Assembly (NCBI GenBank): GCA_016717705.1
Contig: JADKFD010000003.1
Span: 73,892 to 137,891, forward strand
DNA length: 64,000 nucleotides
Direction: 5' to 3'
Origin: Rhodanobacteraceae bacterium
GTDB taxonomy: Bacteria > Pseudomonadota > Gammaproteobacteria > Xanthomonadales > SZUA-5
The notes beneath the pieces are model-generated. The model searched no databases. It saw only the letters and a list, made by a program, of their open reading frames with translations, and was not told where the DNA came from. Positions within the stretch are counted from its first letter, which is position 1. Every line of letters starts with the position of its first letter. Below are positions 229 to 63,451 of the stretch, piece by piece. The translations under genes and the position numbers were made by a program.

Positions 229-1457
229 GTGCGACCCATCGTTGGCAACTGCTGGCCATCCTCATCGGCATCGGCGTCCTGCTGTATCTGCTCGGGCCGG
301 TGCTGACGCCATTTGCGATGGCGGCACTGCTCGCTTATCTCGGCGACCCGCTGGTCGATCGCCTGCAGACGCGCGGCCTGAGCCGCAGCGCATCGGTGTC
401 GATCGTGTTTGCGGCGATGACTTTGGCGCTGCTGCTGCTGCCGTTGATCCTGATTCCACTGCTGGAAACGCAGATCACCACCTTGGTCGAGAAATTGCCG
501 CAGTACCTGGGCTGGATTCGCGAACGCCTGATGCCACTTTTGGTCGAACGCCTCGGCGTCGACCCGGCGCTGCTCGGCACCGACCAGATCGTCGACATGC
601 TGAAAGCGCACTGGCAACAGGCCGGCGGCATCGCCACCACGGTGATCAAGTCGGTGTCGCAGTCGGGTCTCGCCATCATCGGCTGGATCATGAATCTGCT
701 GCTGATTCCAGTTGTCACCTTCTATTTCCTGCGCGACTGGGACCAGATGATCCTGCGTGTACGCGAACTGCTGCCGCGCAACGTGGAGGCCCGTGTGGCC
801 GAACTTGCACGGCAGTCCGATGAGGTGCTGAGCGCCTTCCTGCGCGGCCAGATCGCGGTGATGCTGGCGCTGGGGCTGATCTATTCGATCGGCCTGTGGC
901 TGGCCGGCCTGAAGCTGGCATTCCTGATCGGCATGGGTGCCGGCCTGCTCAGTTTCGTGCCCTACCTCGGCGGCATCCTCGGTGTCGGCGGCGCCGTGAT
1001 CGCGGCGCTCGTCGAGCATCATGACGTGATCCACGTGGTCTACGTCCTGATCGTCTTTGGCATTGGCCAAACACTGGAAGGCTTCGTGCTGACGCCGTGG
1101 CTGGTCGGCGATCGCATTGGACTGCATCCGGTAGCCGTGATCTTCGCCATCCTCGCCGGTGGCCAACTGTTCGGTTTCATCGGCGTTTTGCTGGCGCTAC
1201 CGGTCACCGCGGTGCTGATGGTCATCCTGCGCCATGTGCATGAGCGCTATGTGCAGAGCGATTTGTATCGGGAGGGAGCGACCAAACAGCCGGGACTCGG
1301 GACCCGGGACCCGGGACCCGGTCCGAGCCCGCAAGAGACCAGTGACACGCCAAGCCCAAGCGTCCAGACGCTCGGCATGCCCGCGGATTCAGGAGCGGCG
1401 GGTCCCGGGTCCCGGGTCCCGGGTCCCGGCGACGGCACGCCGGCAGACACCCAATGA
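225..1457 (+). CDS. AI-2E family transporter (PerM/YdiK-like permease) with an unusual ~50-aa Gly/Pro-rich C-terminal tail
   Basis: Internal ATG at 225 (MSATHRWQLLAILIGIGVLLYLLGP...) starts a polytopic membrane protein typical of AI-2E transporters. The stop overlaps the hda start (ATGA at 1454-1457). The tail is encoded by the GGGACCC/GGGTCCC arrays. Confidence 0.8.
   Translation: MSATHRWQLLAILIGIGVLLYLLGPVLTPFAMAALLAYLGDPLVDRLQTRGLSRSASVSIVFAAMTLALLLLPLILIPLLETQITTLVEKLPQYLGWIRERLMPLLVERLGVDPALLGTDQIVDMLKAHWQQAGGIATTVIKSVSQSGLAIIGWIMNLLLIPVVTFYFLRDWDQMILRVRELLPRNVEARVAELARQSDEVLSAFLRGQIAVMLALGLIYSIGLWLAGLKLAFLIGMGAGLLSFVPYLGGILGVGGAVIAALVEHHDVIHVVYVLIVFGIGQTLEGFVLTPWLVGDRIGLHPVAVIFAILAGGQLFGFIGVLLALPVTAVLMVILRHVHERYVQSDLYREGATKQPGLGTRDPGPGPSPQETSDTPSPSVQTLGMPADSGAAGPGSRVPGPGDGTPADTQ
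1290..1429. repeat. Inverted pair of heptamer arrays: (CGGGACC)n at 1290-1323 and (CGGGTCC)n at 1399-1429, inside the perM-like 3' coding end
   Basis: Read directly: ccgggactcgggacccgggacccgggacccggtcc ... cgggtcccgggtcccgggtcccgggtcccgg, about 75 nt apart. The arms are reverse complements. Confidence 0.8.
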
Positions 1458-5311: not shown

Positions 5312-6666
5312 GGCGTGTCAGCGTTCGACTGCTCGGTGGGGGCGGCACTGTACCAGTCGAGACGCCGCGTCAGGTACATCGCCAGGGCCAGCAGCAACGC
5401 CAGGCCGATCGCACCGAGCAGCAGGGACAGTTCCTCGGCACGGATCAACACCAGCAGGAAGCCATATAGCGTCGCCAGCACCGTGGCGCTGAGGGCGCCG
5501 CGCCCCCAGCCGTGCAGCACCGCGGCCGAGTAGCCGCCGACCATCGCCACCACCGCGCCTGCGGCCAGCAGGTAGGCAAGGACGAAGCCGAGGTGCTCGG
5601 ACAGCGCCAGCAACAGCAGGTAGAACACCGCCAGCGCCAGGCCGACGAGGGCGTAGTGGAAGGGATGCAGGCGCACGCCGACCAGCACCTCGGTCAGGAA
5701 CAGCGCCGCCATCGTCAGCGCCAGTACCAGGATGCCGTATTTGGCGCTGCGCTCATTTTGCTGGTAGAGGCCACCGGGCTCGACCAGCGCCACGCCGACC
5801 GCCTGCGCGCCCCAGCCGGCCAGCGCATCGGCGCTGCTGATCACCGCGGGAATGCCGGTCGACAAGTCCATCAGGCGCCAGTCGGCGCTGAAGCCGGCGT
5901 CGCTGACCTCGCGCTGGCGCGGCAAGGCGCCACCGGCGAATCCGGGGTGCGGCCAGTCGCCGCTGATGGCGACCGCGAACTCGGCGGCATTGGGAATCAC
6001 GTCGAGCGCACGTGCGCCGGCCAGTTCCAGCTCGACGGCGAAAGGCAGCGCCTCGGCGGTCGCGGTCGTTGGCGCCAGCACACCGGCCAGTACCGGTCTC
6101 TGGTTCTGCGCGTAGTCGCCGGCCTGCAGATTCCAGCGCTCGGCGGTGGGCTTCAGTTGCAGGGCGACGCCGGCCACATCGAATCGTCGGATCTCGCGCA
6201 GTCCGGTCAGATCGCCCGGCGCAAACAGCAAGCTGAGCTGCTGCAGCGTCCAGGTGTCCGGTTCGTCGAGGTTGGCGGTCACCAGTTGCGGCAGGAAGCT
6301 GCCGTCGATGCGCATCTGCGCGGTGTAGATCGGCAACGCGTGAATGCCGAGCTTGCGTGTTTCCACCTTGAGGGTGGCCTTGACCTCGGCGCTGGCGGCT
6401 GACAACAAGCGCTCGCGACGTTCGCGCACCACCGCGCCATCCTTGTCCAGGCGATCCCGGAAGTACTCGAAGCGCAGCAGCGGCAGCAGCAGTTGCTGCT
6501 CACGACCCCAGCCCGCGGCAATCCGGTCTTCCGCTTCGCGCGCCAGACCGGCGCGCTCCTGCACCAGGTCGTAGATCAGACCCAGCGGGATCAGCAGCAA
6601 CAGCGACAGGACGCCGAGGACGAACAGCTTGAAGGTGGTCGAGGAGGCGAAGGCGATGCGGGACAT
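5308..6666 (-). CDS. creD: Cell envelope integrity inner-membrane protein CreD
   Basis: Internal ATG at 6666 ([38 protein letters not shown]...). The N-terminal anchor plus C-terminal multi-helix region match CreD architecture. The stop overlaps the tsaB start (ATGA). Confidence 0.8.
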
Positions 6667-8813: not shown

Positions 8814-8865
8814 TTGGTTCTCCGCCGCGGGTTGCGCGGCTGGTTGAGGATTGAGGTTTCTTGGA

Positions 8866-9100
8866 GCAGTGAATAGTGAGTAGTGAGTGGTGAGTAAAAC
8901 CCGGCGTTGTCGTTGTAGGAGCGACGTGCACGTCGCGACTCAAAAGCAGCGGCAAATGCGCAGAAGCGACGGGTGCGCCGCTCCCACGAATCCGCGCTTT
9001 GCCCGTCGCGACGGACACGTCGCTCCTACAAAGGCGCCGAAGTGCCACGGAAATGCCGGCTTTTACTCACTATTCACTACTCACCACTCACTGCTTCTGA
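8866..9100. mobile_element. MITE-like element with GTGAGTA-heptamer terminal arrays (copy 1), between pth and ychF
   Basis: Left end gcagtgaatagtgagtagtgagtggtgagtaaaacccggcg (8866-8906). Inverted right end gccggcttttactcactattcactactcaccactcactgc (9055-9100). The 148-bp core holds a GTAGGAGCGACG..CGTCGCTCCTAC REP pair. Confidence 0.65.
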
Positions 9101-9672: not shown

Positions 9673-9682
9673 GCGGAAAGGT

Positions 9683-9749
9683 CAAACGTGAAACGTAAAA
9701 CGTCAATTCGCAGCGCGCTTCGATTGACGTTTTACGTTTGACGTTTCAC
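9683..9749. repeat. Hairpin built from GTGAAAC/GTAAAAC heptamers
   Basis: caaacgtgaaacgtaaaacgtcaat (9683-9707) pairs with attgacgttttacgtttgacgtttcac (9723-9749). It lies between the rplY terminator and the pth start. Confidence 0.75.
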
Positions 9750-10713: not shown

Positions 10714-10774
10714 GGAAAGTGTGAAACGCAGATTGAAGCGCCGGCCACTTCACGTTTCACATTTCACGTTTCAC
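10714..10774. repeat. GTGAAAC-heptamer array element between prs and rplY
   Basis: The minus strand reads GTGAAACGTGAAATGTGAAACGTGAAGTGGCCGGCG...GCGTTTCACACTTTCC: a 4-unit array, a CCGG junction and a short inverted partner. Confidence 0.7.
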
Positions 10775-11787: not shown

Positions 11788-11863
11788 TGGCTGGGGCGCT
11801 AGGACTCGAACCTAGGAATGCGGGTATCAAAATCCCGTGCCTTACCGACTTGGCGACGCCCCA
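11788..11863 (-). tRNA. tRNA-Gln (anticodon TTG)
   Basis: The reverse complement TGGGGCGTCGCCAAGTCGGTAAGGCACGGGATTTTGATACCCGCATTCCTAGGTTCGAGTCCTAGCGCCCCAGCCA folds as a cloverleaf. The acceptor stem TGGGGCG/CGCCCCA and T-arm CTAGG/CCTAG pair, and CCA is encoded. One A31:A39 mismatch sits at the base of the anticodon stem. Confidence 0.85.
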
Positions 11864-12772: not shown

Positions 12773-12959
12773 GGTTTTCGGTTTTCGGATTTTTGTCGGT
12801 CTTCGGCCAATCACGGTCGACAGCCCGGAAGCCAGCTGCGGAGTGAGCGGCTTCGAAGGGGCCGGGCGCCTGTTCGGCCGCTCTGTGTATTGGCGGCTGT
12901 GCGAAGCGGCGCCACGGGCTTGCCGGCCTTTACTCACCACTAACTACTCACTATTCACC
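12773..12959. repeat. Chimeric array element: (CGGTTTT)n array at 12773-12799 plus a GTGAGTA-family arm at 12923-12959
   Basis: ggttttcggttttcggatttttgtcgg ... ccggcctttactcaccactaactactcactattcacc. The right arm and its subterminal CCACGGnnnTGCCGGC match the other GTGAGTA-family copies. The left array is a different unit. Confidence 0.65.
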
Positions 12960-12962
12960 GCT

Positions 12963-13571
12963 CTACCGAAACGTCCACTTGCGCACCGCGATGCGCACCT
13001 GATGCTCGCCGGAACGGGCAAAAACCTTGCGCGGCAGCGGTGGATCCTGGCTGCGATCGAACTCGACGTAACGAATCTCCCAGCCGGATTGCCGCAGCAG
13101 CGCCAGTTCGCCGTCGTCGCCAAATTCAAGTTCGCTGCTCGCACCTGGCGCACGCATGCCGAGCACCCAGTAGCGCAGCGCTTCCGCCGGCAGATGCCAG
13201 TGCAACTCGCGTTGCAACAACTCCTCGGCACTGTTGGCCACACGCACCGCACCGTTCGATTCGATCAGCAGCGCCTGTCCCGGCTGCACCTCGAGGCGCC
13301 AGCTGCGACCGCTGACCGGGGCGACGAAGCGCAAGGTGTAGGCCTGGCCACGCTGCTGCCATTCGAAACGACCGCTGCCACCATCGTCGCCATCGCTGAT
13401 GGCGATGCGACCGCCAAGATCGAACTCCGTGCGTTCGAACATGCGCGATTCGCGCTCCGAAAGTCGGCCCTCGCCAGCGACGACATCGACGCCGGCATCG
13501 GGCTTGACCACGCGTGGCGCGCACGCCGGCAACATCAGCAGGGCCGCGCACAGACACAGCCAGTTCTTCAA
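12963..13571 (-). CDS. lolB: Outer-membrane lipoprotein LolB
   Basis: Signal peptide with lipobox (LKNWLCLCAALLMLPAC) and a LolB-like body (...RFEWQQRGQAYTLRFVAPVSGRSWRLE...). The proposed TTG start at 13571 overlaps the upstream TGA (TTGA). Confidence 0.75.
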   Translation of the reverse strand: MKNWLCLCAALLMLPACAPRVVKPDAGVDVVAGEGRLSERESRMFERTEFDLGGRIAISDGDDGGSGRFEWQQRGQAYTLRFVAPVSGRSWRLEVQPGQALLIESNGAVRVANSAEELLQRELHWHLPAEALRYWVLGMRAPGASSELEFGDDGELALLRQSGWEIRYVEFDRSQDPPLPRKVFARSGEHQVRIAVRKWTFR

Positions 13572-15335: not shown

Positions 15336-16604
15336 ATGGCCATTCTGGCACTGGGCATCAATCACGCGACGGCACCGATCGCGCTGCGCGAACGCGTGGC
15401 GTTCGCGCCCGAGCACACGCCGGATGCCCTGCGCGATCTCAGCACGCTGCCGGGCGTAGGTGCGGCGGCCATCCTCAGCACCTGCAATCGCACCGAGTTG
15501 TACGTCGATCATGAGCCGGGGTCCGAACATACGGCACTCGGCTGTCTGGATCGCTTCCACGGCCTCGGGCACGCCGAACTGCTCACCGTCAGTTATCGTT
15601 ACCAGGACGAGCACGCAGTACGCCATGTGTTCCGCGTGGCGACTGGCCTCGATTCGCTGGTGGTCGGCGAGCCGCAGATCCTGGGTCAACTGAAGCAGGC
15701 CTATCGCATCGCCCAGGACGCGCGCACCTTGTCCGGTCCGCTGGAGCAACTGCTGCAACGCAGTTTCTCGGTGGCCAAGACGGTGCGCACCGAAACCCGG
15801 CTCGGTGCCAATGCAGTATCGGTGGCCTATGCGGCGGTGCGTCTGGCCGGCCAGGTGTTCGACGAGATGCCCAAGCGCCAGGCGTTGCTGGTGGGTGCCG
15901 GCGAAACCATCGAACTGGTGGCGCGCCATTTGCTCGGTGCCGGCGTACGCCGCACCACCGTGGTCAACCGCACGCTGGAGCGTGCCCGCGCGCTCGCCGA
16001 CCGCATCGGCGGCCAGGCCGCGCGGTTGGCGGATCTGGAGACGCATCTGGCTGATTGCGACATTCTGGTCACCGCCACCCACGGCAACGACCCGGTGATC
16101 CGCGCCGACGCGGTCAAGCGCGCCTTCATCGGCCGTCGCCGTCGACCGCTGTTTGCCGTCGACCTTGGCGTGCCGCGCAACATCGAAGCTGCCGTTGGTG
16201 ACCTCGACGACGTCTATCTCTATACCGTCGACGACCTGCGCAACGTGGTCGAAGAGGGCCTGCGCGGTCGGCGCGAGGCCGCGGTGCAAGCCGAATCGAT
16301 GGTCAGCCTGCATGTCGAGGAGTTCATGGCCTGGTGGCGCGAACGCGCCGCCGCCTCGACCATCGTCAGCATGCGCAAACGTGCTGACCGCGCTCGCAGC
16401 GACGTCCTCGATCGCGCCATCAAGCGCCTGCACAATGGCGCCACGCCGGAAGAAGCACTGGAATTTCTGTCGCATGCACTGACCAATCGCCTGCTGCACC
16501 GCCCCACGGTGGGCCTGCGCAGCGCCGCCGCCCTGGGCGACGAGGAGTTTCTGGAATTCGCGTCGAGGTTGTTGGCGCTGGAGCCCCTGAACAGCAGTGA
16601 ATAG
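15336..16604 (+). CDS. hemA: Glutamyl-tRNA reductase
   Basis: MAILALGINHATAPIALRERVAF...LSTCNRTELY... 422 aa. The last two codons and the TAG stop (16596-16604) lie in the repeat arm. Confidence 0.95.
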   Translation: MAILALGINHATAPIALRERVAFAPEHTPDALRDLSTLPGVGAAAILSTCNRTELYVDHEPGSEHTALGCLDRFHGLGHAELLTVSYRYQDEHAVRHVFRVATGLDSLVVGEPQILGQLKQAYRIAQDARTLSGPLEQLLQRSFSVAKTVRTETRLGANAVSVAYAAVRLAGQVFDEMPKRQALLVGAGETIELVARHLLGAGVRRTTVVNRTLERARALADRIGGQAARLADLETHLADCDILVTATHGNDPVIRADAVKRAFIGRRRRPLFAVDLGVPRNIEAAVGDLDDVYLYTVDDLRNVVEEGLRGRREAAVQAESMVSLHVEEFMAWWRERAAASTIVSMRKRADRARSDVLDRAIKRLHNGATPEEALEFLSHALTNRLLHRPTVGLRSAAALGDEEFLEFASRLLALEPLNSSE

Positions 16605-16980
16605 TGAGTAGTAAGTAGTGAGTAAAACCCGGCGCGACCGCAGCTTTGCGGAGGGTGCTGCGCCTGCGACGCCGCTTATGTCCTTCGCCCCCTAAGCGGG
16701 GAAATGGTATGGCGCTGCCCGTTGCCGAACGCACGGCACCGAGCGAGCTGGGCAATAGTTTTGTCCTCCCAACGACGTGCTGGTCGAATCTCCTATCAGC
16801 ACTCGCCGACCTTGCTATCTTCCGCGCGTCAAACATTGCAGAGACGGCTCGCCACGAGTCCTGCGATTCCTCGGGCTGACATGAAAGGCAGCGCAGCAGG
16901 CACTGCGCGCTCCACAAAGCCTCGGCAGCGCCGGGTTTTACTCACTACTCACTACTCACACTCTACTCACCACTTACTGC
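16596..16980. mobile_element. MITE-like element with GTGAGTA-heptamer terminal arrays (copy 3, largest), between hemA and prfA
   Basis: Left end agtgaatagtgagtagtaagtagtgagtaaaacccggcg (16596-16634). Right end gccgggttttactcactactcactactcacactctactcaccacttactgc (16930-16980). The 295-bp core looks lower in GC and has no convincing ORF. Confidence 0.65.
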
Positions 16981-16989
16981 TCTTCGGCC

Positions 16990-18078: not shown

Positions 18079-18184
18079 GGGGGGGGCCCCGAAGAGGTCG
18101 GGGGGCGGGGGGCCCCGCCGGGGGGGGGGGGCCGGAGGGGGGGGCGGGCCGGGGGGGGGCCGGAGCGGGGGGGGTAGGGACCCT
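18079..18184. other. G-dominated low-complexity block (probable sequence artefact)
   Basis: It starts at the base after the prfA stop. Positions 18079-18180 contain 9 A/T in 102 nt, with runs of G broken by short C runs. Confidence 0.7.
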
Positions 18185-19528: not shown

Positions 19529-19627
19529 TGTCAAGGACGCAAAGACGCAAGGAAAGCAAGAGGCGCGCGGAGGCCGGTGGGCCTTGACAAACTTTGCTCC
19601 TTTGCGTCCTTAGCGTCCTTTGCGACA
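19529..19627. repeat. Inverted arrays of GACGCAA-type units around a GGCCGG core
   Basis: tgtcaaggacgcaaagacgcaaggaaagcaag ... gacaaactttgctcctttgcgtccttagcgtcctttgcgaca. The arms are largely complementary. Confidence 0.7.
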
Positions 19628-24295: not shown

Positions 24296-24447
24296 TTGGG
24301 GGCGGGCGTCCGGGCGGCCCCCGCGCCGGCGCCCCCCCCCGCCCCCCCCCCCCGGGGGGGGGTTTTGCCGCGCGCGCCCCCGCCGAATCCCCCCCCCCCC
24401 CCAAAAAACCCCCCCCCCCCCCCCCCCCCCCCCCAAACCCCCCCCCC
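24296..24447. other. C-dominated low-complexity block (probable sequence artefact)
   Basis: It contains a 26-nt C run (24409-24434), a 14-nt C run, a 10-nt G run, and isolated tttt/aaaaaa runs. It replaces the GMC 3' end and the intergenic region. Confidence 0.7.
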
Positions 24448-38637: not shown

Positions 38638-38660
38638 CGGCGCGCTATGCTGCTTTGGTC

Positions 38661-38799
38661 CCCTCTCCCCGCGAGCGGGGAGAGGGTGGCGCCGCAGGCG
38701 ACGGGTGAGGGGCTGTCCTGACAAAGCAAACGCTTCGTGAGGGAATCCCCCTCATCCGGGTCCTTTGGACCCACCTTCTCCCCGCGCGCGGGGAGAAGG
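38661..38799. repeat. Two REP-type hairpins (CTCCCCGCGAGCGGGGAG type)
   Basis: ccctctccccgcgagcggggagaggg (38661-38686) and ccttctccccgcgcgcggggagaagg (38774-38799), both self-complementary. Confidence 0.75.
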
Positions 38800-38829
38800 A
38801 TTCAGGCTCCCTTTCGACGCGAACTACCC

Positions 38830-40284
38830 ATGCGCGATTCCCTGCTGCGACTGACCAATTTCATCGACGGTGACTACTGCGCGCCGTTGAGCAACGCCTA
38901 TCTGCCGGTGGTCGAACCGGCGACCGGCAAGAGCTTTGCCGAGGTGCCCGATTCGGGCGCCGCGGATATCGATGCCGCCGTCGCAGCGGCGACCCGCGCG
39001 CAGCGCGCCTGGGCGCAGACCGCGCCGAGTCAGCGCGCGGCGTTGCTCAGACGCATTGCCGATGTGATCGAAACGCGCCTGGACGCATTGGCCGAAGAGG
39101 AATCGCGCGACAGCGGCAAGCCGGTGAAGGTGGCGCGCAGCGTCGACATCCCGCGCGCGGTGAGCAATTTCCGTTTCTTTGCGGCGATGGCCGAGAGCTT
39201 CGTCTCCGAGAGCCATCAGGGCGAGGTCGGCACGCTGAACTACACGCTGCGCCAGCCGCTCGGCGTGGTCGGCTGTATCAGCCCGTGGAACCTGCCGCTG
39301 TACCTTTTGACCTGGAAAATCGCGCCGGCGCTGGCGGCCGGCAACTGCGTGATCGCCAAACCGAGCGAAGTGACGCCGGTCAGCGCCTGGTTGCTCGGCG
39401 AGATCGTGCAGGCAGCCGGCTTGCCGCCGGGCGTGCTCAACATCGTCCAGGGCGGCGGGCCGCGCTGCGGTCAGGCACTGGTCACCCACCCGAGAATCAA
39501 GGCGGTCTCGTTCACCGGCAGCACTGCCACCGGCGGCGCCATTGCCGCAGCCACCGCCACCCAGTTCAAGAAGCTGTCGCTGGAGATGGGCGGCAAGAAT
39601 GCCACCGTGGTGTTCGCCGACTGCGATTTCGAGCGCACCGTTACCGAAAGCGTGCGCGCCGCATTTTCCAATCAGGGCCAGATTTGCCTGTGCGGCTCGC
39701 GCATCCTGGTCGAGCGCTCGCTGCTGCCGCGTTTCCGCGAGGCCTTCCTGGCCAAGGTCGCCGAGCTCAAGGTCGGCGATCCGCGCGATCCGGCCAGCGA
39801 TATCGGCGCCGTCGTCTCAGCCGCGCATCTGGCCAAGGTACAGAGTTACATTGCGCTGGCACACGAAGAAGGTGGTCGACTGCTCACCGGCGGCGAGAGG
39901 CTCAAGATCGATGGCCGCTGCGGCGAGGGCTATTTCCTGGCACCGACGGTGTTCGACCAGCTCGACGCCCATTGCCGGGTCAATCAGGAAGAGGTTTTCG
40001 GCCCGTTGGCGACGCTGATCCCCTTCGACGACGAGGCCCAGGCGCTGGCCTTTGCCAACAGCACCCAGTACGGACTGGCCTGTTCCGTGTGGACGCGCGA
40101 CCTGGCCCGTGCGCATCGCTTCGCCGCCGCCGTGGAAGCCGGCGTGGTCTGGATCAACTGCTGGATGGCGCGCGACCTGCGCACGCCGTTTGGCGGAGTC
40201 AAGCACTCCGGCCTGGGTCGCGAAGGTGGCCTGGACGGCATGCGCTTTTTCACTGAGCCGAAGAATGTGGCGATTCATTGTTGA
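38830..40284 (+). CDS. NAD(P)-dependent aldehyde dehydrogenase
   Basis: MRDSLLRLTNFIDGDYCAP... with conserved ...LEMGGKNATVVF... and ...GQICLCGSR... (catalytic Cys). 484 aa from the ATG at 38830. Confidence 0.85.
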   Translation: MRDSLLRLTNFIDGDYCAPLSNAYLPVVEPATGKSFAEVPDSGAADIDAAVAAATRAQRAWAQTAPSQRAALLRRIADVIETRLDALAEEESRDSGKPVKVARSVDIPRAVSNFRFFAAMAESFVSESHQGEVGTLNYTLRQPLGVVGCISPWNLPLYLLTWKIAPALAAGNCVIAKPSEVTPVSAWLLGEIVQAAGLPPGVLNIVQGGGPRCGQALVTHPRIKAVSFTGSTATGGAIAAATATQFKKLSLEMGGKNATVVFADCDFERTVTESVRAAFSNQGQICLCGSRILVERSLLPRFREAFLAKVAELKVGDPRDPASDIGAVVSAAHLAKVQSYIALAHEEGGRLLTGGERLKIDGRCGEGYFLAPTVFDQLDAHCRVNQEEVFGPLATLIPFDDEAQALAFANSTQYGLACSVWTRDLARAHRFAAAVEAGVVWINCWMARDLRTPFGGVKHSGLGREGGLDGMRFFTEPKNVAIHC

Positions 40285-40287
40285 AGC

Positions 40288-40410
40288 GGTGAGTAGTAAG
40301 TAGTGAGTGGTGAGTAAAACCCGGTGATATCGGCGCCTACGGTAATCGCGACGAAGCGGGATGCCCACGGCTGTGCCGGCTCTTACTCACTACTCACTAC
40401 TCACTTATTC
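40288..40410. mobile_element. MITE-like element with GTGAGTA-heptamer terminal arrays (copy 4, smallest), between the aldehyde dehydrogenase and RidA genes
   Basis: ggtgagtagtaagtagtgagtggtgagtaaaacccgg (40288-40324), a 51-bp core, then ccggctcttactcactactcactactcacttattc (40376-40410). The ridA RBS AGGAG follows directly. Confidence 0.65.
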
Positions 40411-40847: not shown

Positions 40848-40857
40848 CCGCAAGTGC

Positions 40858-40932
40858 GATCGCGCGCGAGCGCGCTCCTGCAAGCTTGCCGGAAGTCCAC
40901 GCAAGAATTGTAGGAGCGCGCTCGCGCGCGAT
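40858..40932. repeat. REP pair (TGYAGGAGCGCGCTCGCGCGCGAT type) between convergent genes
   Basis: gatcgcgcgcgagcgcgctcctgcaa (40858-40883) and ttgtaggagcgcgctcgcgcgcgat (40908-40932) are inverted copies. Related single copies occur near 7625, 45760 and 63500. Confidence 0.75.
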
Positions 40933-40939
40933 GCTCTAG

Positions 40940-45821: not shown

Positions 45822-45873
45822 CCCCCCCGGGGGGGGGGCCGGGGGGGGGTTGGGGGGGGGGGGGGGGGGGGGG
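45822..45873. other. Homopolymer block (C7, G10, G9, G22); probable sequence artefact
   Basis: Read directly: gcccccccggggggggggccgggggggggttgggggggggggggggggggggg. The G run is 22 nt (45852-45873). It ends 22 nt before the stop of the minus-strand gene at 45895. Confidence 0.7.
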
Positions 45874-45894
45874 ACCGCCCACAGACAGCGCGGA

Positions 45895-52547: not shown

Positions 52548-52691
52548 GGTAAGCCGGGCGCGCGCATCCTTGGGCTCCGCCAACGCTGCAGGGCGGTTAC
52601 GCGCGACGTTCGCCGCTCTGGTAGGCCGGGCACGCGCGTCCTTGGGCTTCGCCAATGCTGGGGGGTGGTTACGCGCGACGCCCGGCGCTCT
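52548..52691. repeat. Tandem direct repeat, 2 x 72 bp
   Basis: Unit 1 (52548-52619) ggtaagccgggcgcgcgcatccttgggctccgccaacgctgcagggcggttacgcgcgacgttcgccgctct and unit 2 (52620-52691) ggtaggccgggcacgcgcgtccttgggcttcgccaatgctggggggtggttacgcgcgacgcccggcgctct are directly adjacent. Confidence 0.8.
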
Positions 52692-59012: not shown

Positions 59013-61050
<2,038 letters not shown>

Positions 61051-61149: not shown

Positions 61150-61197
61150 GGGAGGGGGGGGGGGGGGGGGGGGGGGGGGCGCCCCGGGGCGCGGGCG
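61150..61197. other. Homopolymer block with a 26-nt G run; probable sequence artefact
   Basis: gggag followed by G x26 (61154-61179), then cgccccggggcgcgggcgg. It lies between the thiC leader and the stop of the S9 peptidase gene. Confidence 0.7.
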
Positions 61198-63378: not shown

Positions 63379-63451
63379 GGCCGGGTGTTGTGGGGTCTTG
63401 GTTGTGGGTTGTGGGGTCGGTTGTTGGTCGTTGGTTGTTGGTTGTTGGTTG
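63379..63451. repeat. TTGGTTG/TTGTGGG heptamer array adjoining a GGCCGGG junction
   Basis: ggccgggtgttgtggggtcttggttgtgggttgtggggtcggttgttggtcgttggttgttggttgttggttg. It lies in the divergent region between the S9 peptidase and TetR genes. Confidence 0.75.

Follow-up and report, generated by a model that had tools for sequence, protein, structure and literature searches.

The 64-kb stretch of Rhodanobacteraceae DNA analysed here (contig JADKFD010000003.1, positions 73,892 to 137,891; called the window, and covering all the copy counts given for this genome) carries at four gene junctions a set of small elements built of tandem GTGAGTA heptamers. Seven arms of this type were recognized by reading the sequence, and they make up three inverted pairs and one solo arm. 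The pairs lie between pth and ychF (element 1), hemA and prfA (element 2) and aldh and ridA (element 3), the solo arm lies between lolB and ispE, and the flanking genes are co-oriented at all four loci. The initial annotation had placed the copies in gaps between housekeeping genes of the same direction, which was confirmed for the flanks by a Pfam screen of 10 open reading frames (ORFs) of the window: YchF, Pth, LolB, a GHMP kinase (IspE), HemA, RF-1, aldehyde dehydrogenase and RidA were recognized, and L25 was confirmed among the flanking genes as well.

Anatomy of the GTGAGTA elements

The arrays were found exactly where they had been proposed, and far above chance expectation. The 15-mer probe for the inner end of the arm (GTGAGTAAAACCCGG, at most 3 mismatches) had 7 matches where 0.71 were expected, and 0 of 100 shuffles reached 7; with the two-unit probe AGTGAGTAGTGAGT, at most 2 mismatches being allowed, there were 20 matches against 0.11 expected, a number not attained in any shuffle. 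Tandem Repeats Finder (TRF) reported period-7 arrays at 8864-8896, 9064-9092, 12931-12958, 16596-16624, 16939-16982, 40289-40316 and 40384-40405.

From the outside to the inside an arm consists of the motif AGCRG, three to six units of the form GTRARTR (four being the commonest number per arm) and a non-repeat inner end, over a length of about 40-55 nt. Two closely related inner ends occur, type A (GTGAGTA-AAACCCGGYG) and type B (GTGAGTA-ARAGCCGGCA-nnn-CCGTGG), and in most pairs the two ends are unlike, with type A on one side and type B on the other. The inverted repeats are 30-72 nt long with 82-87% complementarity, and the elements measure 125-390 bp. The left-end consensus suggested previously was correct; the right-end consensus CCACGGnnnTGCCGGCnnnTTACTCAC describes the arms 9045-9095, 12912-12962 and 40365-40409 and fails for the 16596-16980 copy, whose right arm has a type A inner end (CGCCGGGTTTTACTCAC). 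The GTGAGTA unit does not contain any run of two or more G, and towards the outside of the arm each junction between heptamers contains GTAG (GAGTAGTG). By reading, a single arm is a tandem array with a short inner end and has no evident self-complementary stem, the folds having been made on whole elements. Every core is too short to encode a transposase, in agreement with the earlier statement that no transposase-like ORF is carried.

Element 1 begins with the left arm at 8865..8906 on the plus strand, in which AGCA is followed by 4 heptamers (8869-8896) and the type A inner end AAACCCGGCG. The ychF start (8813, minus strand) follows 51 nt downstream of this arm, an exception to the close start spacing seen elsewhere. 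The core (8907..9044) contains a nested, GTAG-headed inverted pair resembling repetitive extragenic palindromic (REP) sequences, at 8913-8939 and 9005-9031 with 93% complementarity, and a third, innermost hairpin. The right arm, 9045..9095 on the minus strand, reads CCACGG-nnn-TGCCGGC (type B), 4 heptamers (9064-9091) and TGCT, and the pth stop TGA (9088-9090, minus strand) lies inside its first heptamer. The solo arm at 12912..12962 on the minus strand, which corresponds to the half copy previously located near 12923-12959, has a type B inner end and stands directly after the lolB stop TAG (12963-12965, minus strand).

In element 2 the left arm (16593..16634, plus strand) consists of AGCA, 4 heptamers (16597-16624) and AAACCCGGCG, and includes the hemA stop TAG at 16602-16604. 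The outer 40-45 nt on each side of the core (16635..16928) belong to an extended inverted repeat, which reaches 72 nt at 82% complementarity (16604-16675 versus 16888-16959) and thus extends for 45 nt of unique sequence beyond the heptamers. The right arm (16929..16981, minus strand) has a type A inner end (CGCCGGGTTT), two groups of heptamers (3 + 2) separated by 4 nt, and TGCT; it ends 9 nt before the prfA ATG (16990), and no Shine-Dalgarno sequence is visible for prfA in the window. Element 3 has a left arm (40285..40326, plus strand) of AGCG, 4 heptamers (40289-40316) and AAACCCGGTG, beginning directly 3' of the aldh stop TGA (40282-40284), a short core (40327..40364) and a right arm (40365..40409, minus strand) of CCACGG-nnn-TGCCGGC, 3 heptamers (40384-40404) and TTATT, 3' of which are the Shine-Dalgarno sequence AGGAG and the ATG (40422) of ridA.

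Orthologous junctions, polarity and folding

The further copies that had been asked for as a check were found in other genomes, so that identical ends are dispersed over unrelated loci. A 22-nt arm pattern matched three contigs among about 185,000 species genomes, two of them from a Rhodanobacteraceae metagenome-assembled genome (MAG) and the third a 2-kb contig of a MAG labelled Burkholderiaceae, the binning of which is uncertain at that length. All three carry inverted pairs with the same arm and inner end, unrelated cores, and a position pressed against gene ends. There was no GTGAGTA arm match in viral contigs. By its RF-1 homologues the window belongs to an uncultured Xanthomonadales (Lysobacterales) lineage close to the Rhodanobacteraceae, no identical RF-1 protein being on record. 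Additionally, syntenic contigs at graded distances were obtained through homologues of RF-1 and of the aldehyde dehydrogenase (L004, L005, L006, L008 and L010, and L132-L135).

At the aldh-ridA junction L132 (98% identity) has the same element with an identical core and one extra heptamer, the right arm having 4 units versus 3. L133 (89%) carries a GTAG-headed REP-like pair after the same TGAAGCGG, L134 (84%) a GTGAGTA pair with an unrelated core and with the aldh stop in the first heptamer, and in L135 (82%) the spacer of about 30 nt is empty, which provides the clean empty orthologous site that had been looked for. From these allele states it follows that whole elements are insertions and that different palindromic families alternate at the same permissive junctions. 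Target-site duplications were also searched for, and none was found at about 15 junctions read in the window and the relatives, the site of the empty allele included.

At the other junctions the elements are kept across relatives with 78-92% RF-1 identity. The window's GTGAGTA pair between ychF and pth is matched by GTGAGTA-type pairs in L004, L005 and L010, and in L006 and L008 GGAAAAG pairs occupy the same place. The core of this element aligns among the window, L004 and L005, hence the element was inherited vertically. At hemA-prfA there are pairs in the window, L004 and L010 and none in L006 and L008. The pth-L25 junction holds a GAAACGT pair in the window, two tandem GAAACGT-type pairs in L004 and L005, a GTGAAAA pair in L010 and nothing of the kind in L006 and L008; L25-prs has a partial GTGAAAC arm in the window, a 9-mer pair in L004 and L005, GGAAAAG pairs in L008 and L010, and none in L006. 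The solo arm was not found at the lolB-ispE junction in any relative examined. Throughout, the arms are far better conserved than the surrounding spacers.

The cores were described initially as unrelated to each other, a statement that has to be qualified since element 1 has its nested REP-like pair, in a core homologous to those of the orthologous elements in L004 and L005, and a 25-nt block (z = 4.7, 0 of 300 shuffles) is common to the core of element 2 and the hemA-prfA spacer of L006, which has no array. The remaining comparisons, with spacers that have no array and with the core of L010, were not significant, and the array-free spacers of different genomes no longer align. The idea that the cores are native spacer depends on this single significant block and is held loosely. 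The cores are not cargo, and that of element 3 belongs to the insertion itself. In the core of element 2, and in common with L004 and L008, a motif TGCTATC-T that resembles a -10 box can be read, with no support from a promoter scan.

The two arms of an element change together. In the ychF-pth element GTG became GTA in three left-arm units, with matching C to T changes in the units of the right arm, and the unit numbers per arm differ between L004 and L005. Over the inner 28 positions of 12 elements 93.5% of the cells pair against 90.1% in shuffles, and double-change pairs numbered 10 where 4.6 were expected (a number reached in 0 of 500 shuffles); since L004 and L005 are orthologues, the counts lack full independence. 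The L004 copy at hemA-prfA has a type B right end, unlike the type A end of element 2, where it looks as if one arm with its neighbourhood had been copied inverted onto the other side. It was also observed that in L004 and L005 (9938-9996) the hemA-prfA right arm is tandemly duplicated, each complete arm having its own outer end AGCAGTGA, which indicates that whole arms, and not heptamers alone, can duplicate.

The arrangement of the arms has an absolute polarity. Over about 130 loci 38 GTGAGTA-type pairs were convergent, with the G-rich array first, and 0 were divergent within 1 kb, the gaps of the convergent pairs being below 450 nt and mostly below 200 nt. In all unit families taken together the G-rich arm comes first in 27 of 27 inverted pairs. 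The two arrangements are truly different, as reading the opposite strand does not turn one into the other. There are three candidate explanations of the polarity: anchoring on the stop codon, avoidance of an exposed C-rich entry site for Rho, and a fixed polarity of transposon-like ends.

The elements sit at gene boundaries. The stops of hemA, pth, aldh and lolB fall within 12 nt of the first full heptamer on either side (-12 to +12), the same being true for an ORF (read as dtd) entering an arm at 7572 of contig L003, and the heptamer itself often supplies the stop (TGA at +1, TAG at +5). The G-rich arm has TGA and TAG in all three frames, therefore any gene entering it stops at once. On the other side the distance from arm end to start is 9 nt in the window, 5 nt in L004 and 0 nt in L010 for prfA, and 16 and 10 nt for ridA. 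As a separate observation, the right arm of L010 (9950-9975) abuts a TTG at the position where the other genomes have their aligned prfA start (MLPRIRH versus MNPRIRH); the public prfA gene call begins 11 codons later, and a prfA starting at the TTG would have neither a spacer nor a Shine-Dalgarno sequence after the arm.

The placement at stop codons extends beyond the paired elements. When metagenomes were scanned with three perfect units, more than 120 contigs with GC contents from 28% to 73% were obtained (L012-L131), far beyond the Xanthomonadales, with (GTGAGTA)n arrays of 3-16 units that are mostly solo and typically stand in sense orientation right where an ORF ends. For 142 arrays, selected by the array alone and with an ORF threshold of at least 100 aa, an ORF ended at the array in the G-rich direction in 59 cases and in the other direction in at most 9; on low-GC contigs the numbers were 34 versus 6, and the stops clustered at offsets -2, +1 and +5. 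Since most of these metagenome arrays are solo and do not have the specific ends seen in the window, the unit is widespread and the paired element with its type A and type B ends is a sub-family.

Folding was another check proposed at the outset, and the arms pair strongly: in the predicted RNA folds of the three paired elements they pair end to end (z = -4.8, -13.7 and -9.4), which would bring the upstream stop and the downstream start to the foot of one stem. The predicted hairpin is a real property of the sequence. G-U use showed no preference for the transcribed strand. Rfam 15, run over the whole window, found no family at the elements and matched only a thiamine pyrophosphate (TPP) riboswitch and tRNA-Gln. 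Intrinsic termination was considered and rejected: a terminator has a short GC-rich stem, a loop of 3-8 nt and a U-tract, the loops here span 20-300 nt, and a consensus terminator scan flagged only a local 6-bp stem at 16921-16935, with totals equal to those of shuffles. The L25 terminator (9794-9763) is separate from the elements.

Origin and possible role of the elements

Among long simple repeats, heptamers are the one class known to be over-represented in some bacterial genomes, and we know of nobody who has given the reason. Cyanobacterial short tandemly repeated repetitive (STRR) heptamers are comparable intergenic tandem heptamers. The closest counterpart is the GGGAATC repeat of X. campestris and X. 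axonopodis, also Xanthomonadales, of which Rehm et al. 2015 (PMC4692102) counted 186 and 183 arrays in two Xanthomonas genomes. About 90% of these are intergenic, mostly with four units, closest to the end of the upstream ORF and mostly between co-oriented genes; they are transcribed, their length differs between the two species, and in 70-75 cases convergent pairs with one array per strand can form stem-loops (PMC4692102). The GTGAGTA elements share tandem heptamers in about 4 units, the intergenic position near the upstream stop between co-oriented genes, convergent pairs, at least two units per array and a unit number that varies among close relatives. They differ in having conserved non-repeat sequence at both the outer and the inner end, a feature that was not reported for GGGAATC arrays, in carrying TGA and TAG in all frames and in the coexistence of several unit families in this Rhodanobacteraceae-like lineage, the Xanthomonas study describing GGGAATC. 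G-quadruplex functions were sought for the GGGAATC arrays and no role or regulatory effect was found (PMC4692102). A G-quadruplex was dismissed for GTGAGTA, whose unit has no G-runs, and for the same reason it is not a defining property of the class.

The initial annotation did not recognize the repeat as a named family, which holds for the GTGAGTA heptamer but not for the class, already published in Xanthomonas. GTGAGTA is a new family of an already described class. Another stop-rich heptamer, TAACTGA of Beggiatoaceae, cyanobacteria and Bacteroidetes, is intergenic, has 2-6 units with two stops per unit, and occurs just upstream of start codons in 169 direct sets versus one indirect (MacGregor 2015, PMC4679880). 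It has in common with GTGAGTA the richness in stops, an overlap with gene ends that can be no more than slight and in one orientation, and a position at gene boundaries including those of essential genes; the GTGAGTA element differs as an inverted pair anchored on the upstream stop.

We consider it about an even chance (a probability of roughly 0.5) that the GTGAGTA elements are non-autonomous palindromic intergenic repeats of the Xanthomonas heptamer-pair class, with a lifestyle like that of REPINs (REP doublets forming hairpins) or bacterial interspersed mosaic elements (BIMEs), and tolerated at operon junctions. Copies are shown to come into such junctions as insertions, with neither a target duplication nor a gene of their own. 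They may be tolerated there as the G-rich arm would halt translation at once and the insert would fold away as a hairpin. Afterwards they are inherited vertically, change in unit number between near-identical strains and keep their two arms complementary when the unit sequence changes; the arms would be reshaped by replication slippage and kept matched either by arm-to-arm copying (fold-back or template-switch conversion) or by selection for pairing. In the operon mRNA the arms would pair as a long hairpin and the insert would be looped out, leaving stop and start a few nucleotides apart. The element may spread by itself or be copied by the host in the manner of REPINs and BIMEs, and would not be a cargo transposon. 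The effect on the operon mRNA, be it on translational coupling, on stability or through shielding from Rho, is probably a modulating one at most.

Several observations weigh against this reading. Neither a mobilising gene nor a target-site duplication nor a donor-recipient pair was found, so that mobility is deduced from distribution alone. The 25-nt block which the hemA-prfA core shares with an array-free spacer would fit better with arms added around a native spacer than with the insertion of a compact unit. The occupation of the same junctions in many lineages could equally mean that the host needs a hairpin there. Furthermore, of 20 elements 11 fold more stably as the antisense and 9 as the sense strand; as there is no sense-strand bias, a role at the RNA level has no positive support beyond the predicted fold.

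A wider formulation, which we regard as possible though doubtful, treats the paired inverted arrays with period 7-9, the G-rich arm first, anchoring on the upstream stop and in most cases an extension up to the next start as one distinct bacterial operon-junction class of constrained polarity, with its own generating machinery and a role in the mRNA, namely stop-to-start coupling and/or masking of C-rich Rho sites; the Xanthomonas GGGAATC would be one member, and the G-quadruplex a side issue. A machinery of its own is suggested by the AGCRG or GAAGCRG terminus common to unit families. Of 54 arms in the window, L004, L006, L008 and L010, 19 have AGCRG ahead of the array, frequently as GAAGCRG or AAGAGCRG, the background being 6.8%; these are mostly GTGAGTA-family arms, the cross-family part consisting of 4-5 GGAAAAG arms, and the motif hints tentatively at a shared terminus or target across unit families.

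It is rather improbable, in our estimation, that the elements are of the REPIN type in the strict sense, moved as single-stranded hairpin DNA by a REP-associated tyrosine (HUH/Y1) transposase (RAYT), with the junction GTAG as the tag and no target-site duplication. The likeness is considerable: REPs, BIMEs and REPINs are short inverted extragenic palindromes of high copy number with a variable spacer, hairpins and no target-site duplication (Bertels and Rainey 2011, PMC3116915; Ton-Hoang 2012, PMC3333891; Di Nocera 2013, PMC3733652; Corneloup 2021, PMC8266576), and the outer GTAG of REPs, as of the GTGAGTA arms, often provides the stop of the neighbouring ORF, REP dimers having GTAG outside (PMC3733652). 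REPINs are reported to persist at orthologous sites over long times (PMC3116915 and the RAREFAN preprint), as the GTGAGTA elements do, and an active TnpA-REP exists within the Xanthomonadales, in Stenotrophomonas (PMC8266576). GTAG-headed REP pairs also occur at the same aldh-ridA junction in L133 and nested in element 1. However, a REP is a single stem-loop of 20-40 nt with one GTAG tag, whereas here a tandem array pairs with another arm, single arms show by reading no evident stem-loop of their own (whole elements having been folded), and the sister families GGAAAAG, GGGACCC, GAAACGT and the 9-mer do not have the GTAG. No RAYT gene was seen among the 10 window ORFs screened with Pfam.

An origin in place is also unlikely. 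In this scheme a 7-nt unit holding the upstream stop would have been amplified by slippage, and the partner arm made by inverted duplication through template switching. It would explain the polarity, because an inverted copy of a stop-anchored arm can land only downstream, and it is consistent with the mostly solo sense arrays on stop codons of very diverse taxa, with the one-unit slippage, with the inverted repeat of element 2 beyond the array and with the core block in an array-free spacer. The scheme does not account for the non-repeat ends of 11-20 nt (AAAACCCGGCG; GCCGGCA-nnn-CCGTGG), which are identical between unrelated loci and recur in other genomes as well, nor for the aldh-ridA junction, where comparison with the empty site shows the entire element to be additional, its core as well; unlike A and B inner ends in most pairs are not what a simple inverted duplication is expected to give.

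Little credence can be given as well to the elements being cis-acting RNAs selected by the host, with a hairpin serving translational coupling, protection or processing (RNase III), or the hiding of a C-rich stretch from Rho. The Xanthomonas arrays had no regulatory effect (PMC4692102). The arms here do abut stops and starts, down to direct contact with the prfA TTG in L010 and a window prfA that has no visible Shine-Dalgarno sequence, some hairpin array, though of different families, is found at the same junctions in most lineages, and arms are better conserved than spacers and covary; the order with the G-rich arm first would moreover mean that the C-rich arm is paired immediately upon its synthesis. 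On the other hand there is no sense-strand preference, no Rfam family and nothing terminator-like, and hemA-prfA has no array in L006 and L008, nor does aldh-ridA in L135.

A classical MITE (miniature inverted-repeat transposable element), that is, a deletion derivative of an insertion sequence (IS) whose DDE transposase would recognise the heptamer-array ends in trans, is very improbable despite the imperfect terminal inverted repeats of 40-50 nt, the small, non-coding, multicopy nature, the presence/absence polymorphism and the subterminal arrays (multiple short subterminal repeats being typical transposase binding sites), because no target-site duplication accompanies the copies, about 130 loci contained no class of convergent arrays 0.45-5 kb apart that could represent the parent IS, the heptamer number varies freely, whole unit families replace each other at one site and copies are stable at orthologous sites across deep divergence. 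The MITE-like reading of the initial annotation is supported as to dispersed non-coding inverted repeats with conserved ends, presence/absence differences and pairing arms; beyond terminal inverted repeats and small size the features that define a MITE found no support. Pneumococcal BOX elements are likewise small and non-coding, with inverted pairing ends, a variable subunit number and presence or absence between strains; the GTGAGTA elements differ from MITEs and BOX alike in having no target-site duplication, no related transposase-bearing element found and a repeated unit of 7 nt. Two further candidates were rejected. The arm ends do not have the RYYYAAC / GTTRRRY cores of integron attC sites, and the flanks are syntenic housekeeping genes and not cassettes; telomere-like G-rich addition at both sides of a break would fit the polarity but fails on the conserved inner ends and cores.

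Other unit families and their meaning

GTGAGTA is not alone: there are at least seven other unit families of like build in this Xanthomonadales lineage, and about 190 kb of Xanthomonadales DNA contained 27 inverted tandem-array pairs of period 7-9 in at least 8 unit families. Those in the window had not been connected with the GTGAGTA elements before. A (GGGACCC)n / (GGGTCCC)n inverted pair at 1290..1429, recognized by TRF and inverted-pair comparison, is free of stops and forms part of the tail at the C-terminal end of an AI-2E transporter ORF (63-1457), whose Pfam domain ends at residue 391 of 464; the ORF runs through the whole pair to an ATGA overlap with the next gene, and the repeat appears to have extended the protein. 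A (GAAACGT)n / (ACGTTTY)n inverted pair with a 20-nt core (9676..9746) is situated between the L25 terminator and the pth start. The 9-mer pair (CAAAGGACG and CGTCCTTTG) at 19532..19624 belongs to a family also present in L003, L004 and L133. The L25-prs spacer holds the solo or partial (GTGAAAC)n arm at 10749..10774 (minus strand), a solo (CCGAAAA)n array at 12773-12792 immediately precedes the ispE start, and at 63387-63451 there is a long solo array of (GTTGTTG)n. GGAAAAG, GTGAAAA, an 8-mer (GGGCACGA), GGTTGTT and GGGTTGT are further unit families of the relatives. Stops in all frames were considered as a general cause of the period of 7. This is true for GTGAGTA and GAAACGT, but GGAAAAG, GGGACCC, the 9-mer and GGGAATC do not contain stops; since several unit families are stop-free, all-frame stops cannot explain the whole class.

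Other repeats were noticed in passing. GTAG-headed REP-like palindromes are present at 8913-9031, at about 40855-40935 and in L133 at 5461-5530 (GTAGGAGCGACGTG..., GTAGGAGCGCGCTCGCGCGCG..., GTAGGTCACGTTGGCCCG...). The adh_short-aldh spacer (38640-38800) has two copies of another palindromic repeat (CCTCTCCCCGCGAGCGGGGAGAGG and CTTCTCCCCGCGCGCGGGGAGAAGG), and this spacer holds in L133 a 9-mer pair, in L134 a pair of the 8-mer. Blocks composed nearly entirely of long G or C homopolymer runs (up to about 30-55 nt) lie at 18081-18174, 24317-24447, 45826-45875 and 61150-61179; the first of these is directly 3' of the prfA stop and is missing from that spacer in all relatives, and the blocks could be G-rich insertions or artefacts of sequencing or assembly. 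A 72-bp tandem duplication (52548-52691, 2 copies, 84% matches) was also seen. The two Rfam matches are the TPP riboswitch at 60948-61045 (minus strand, 61.8 bits) and tRNA-Gln(TTG) at 11788-11863 (minus strand), between prs and ispE.

The heptamer repeats of this lineage are organised hairpin elements and not loose microsatellites. With this the question moves from G-quadruplexes to coupling over a looped-out insert, to the avoidance of Rho entry sites and to single-strand transposition. Furthermore, gene calling in these genomes has to take into account that the arrays provide or shift stop codons and lengthen ORFs.

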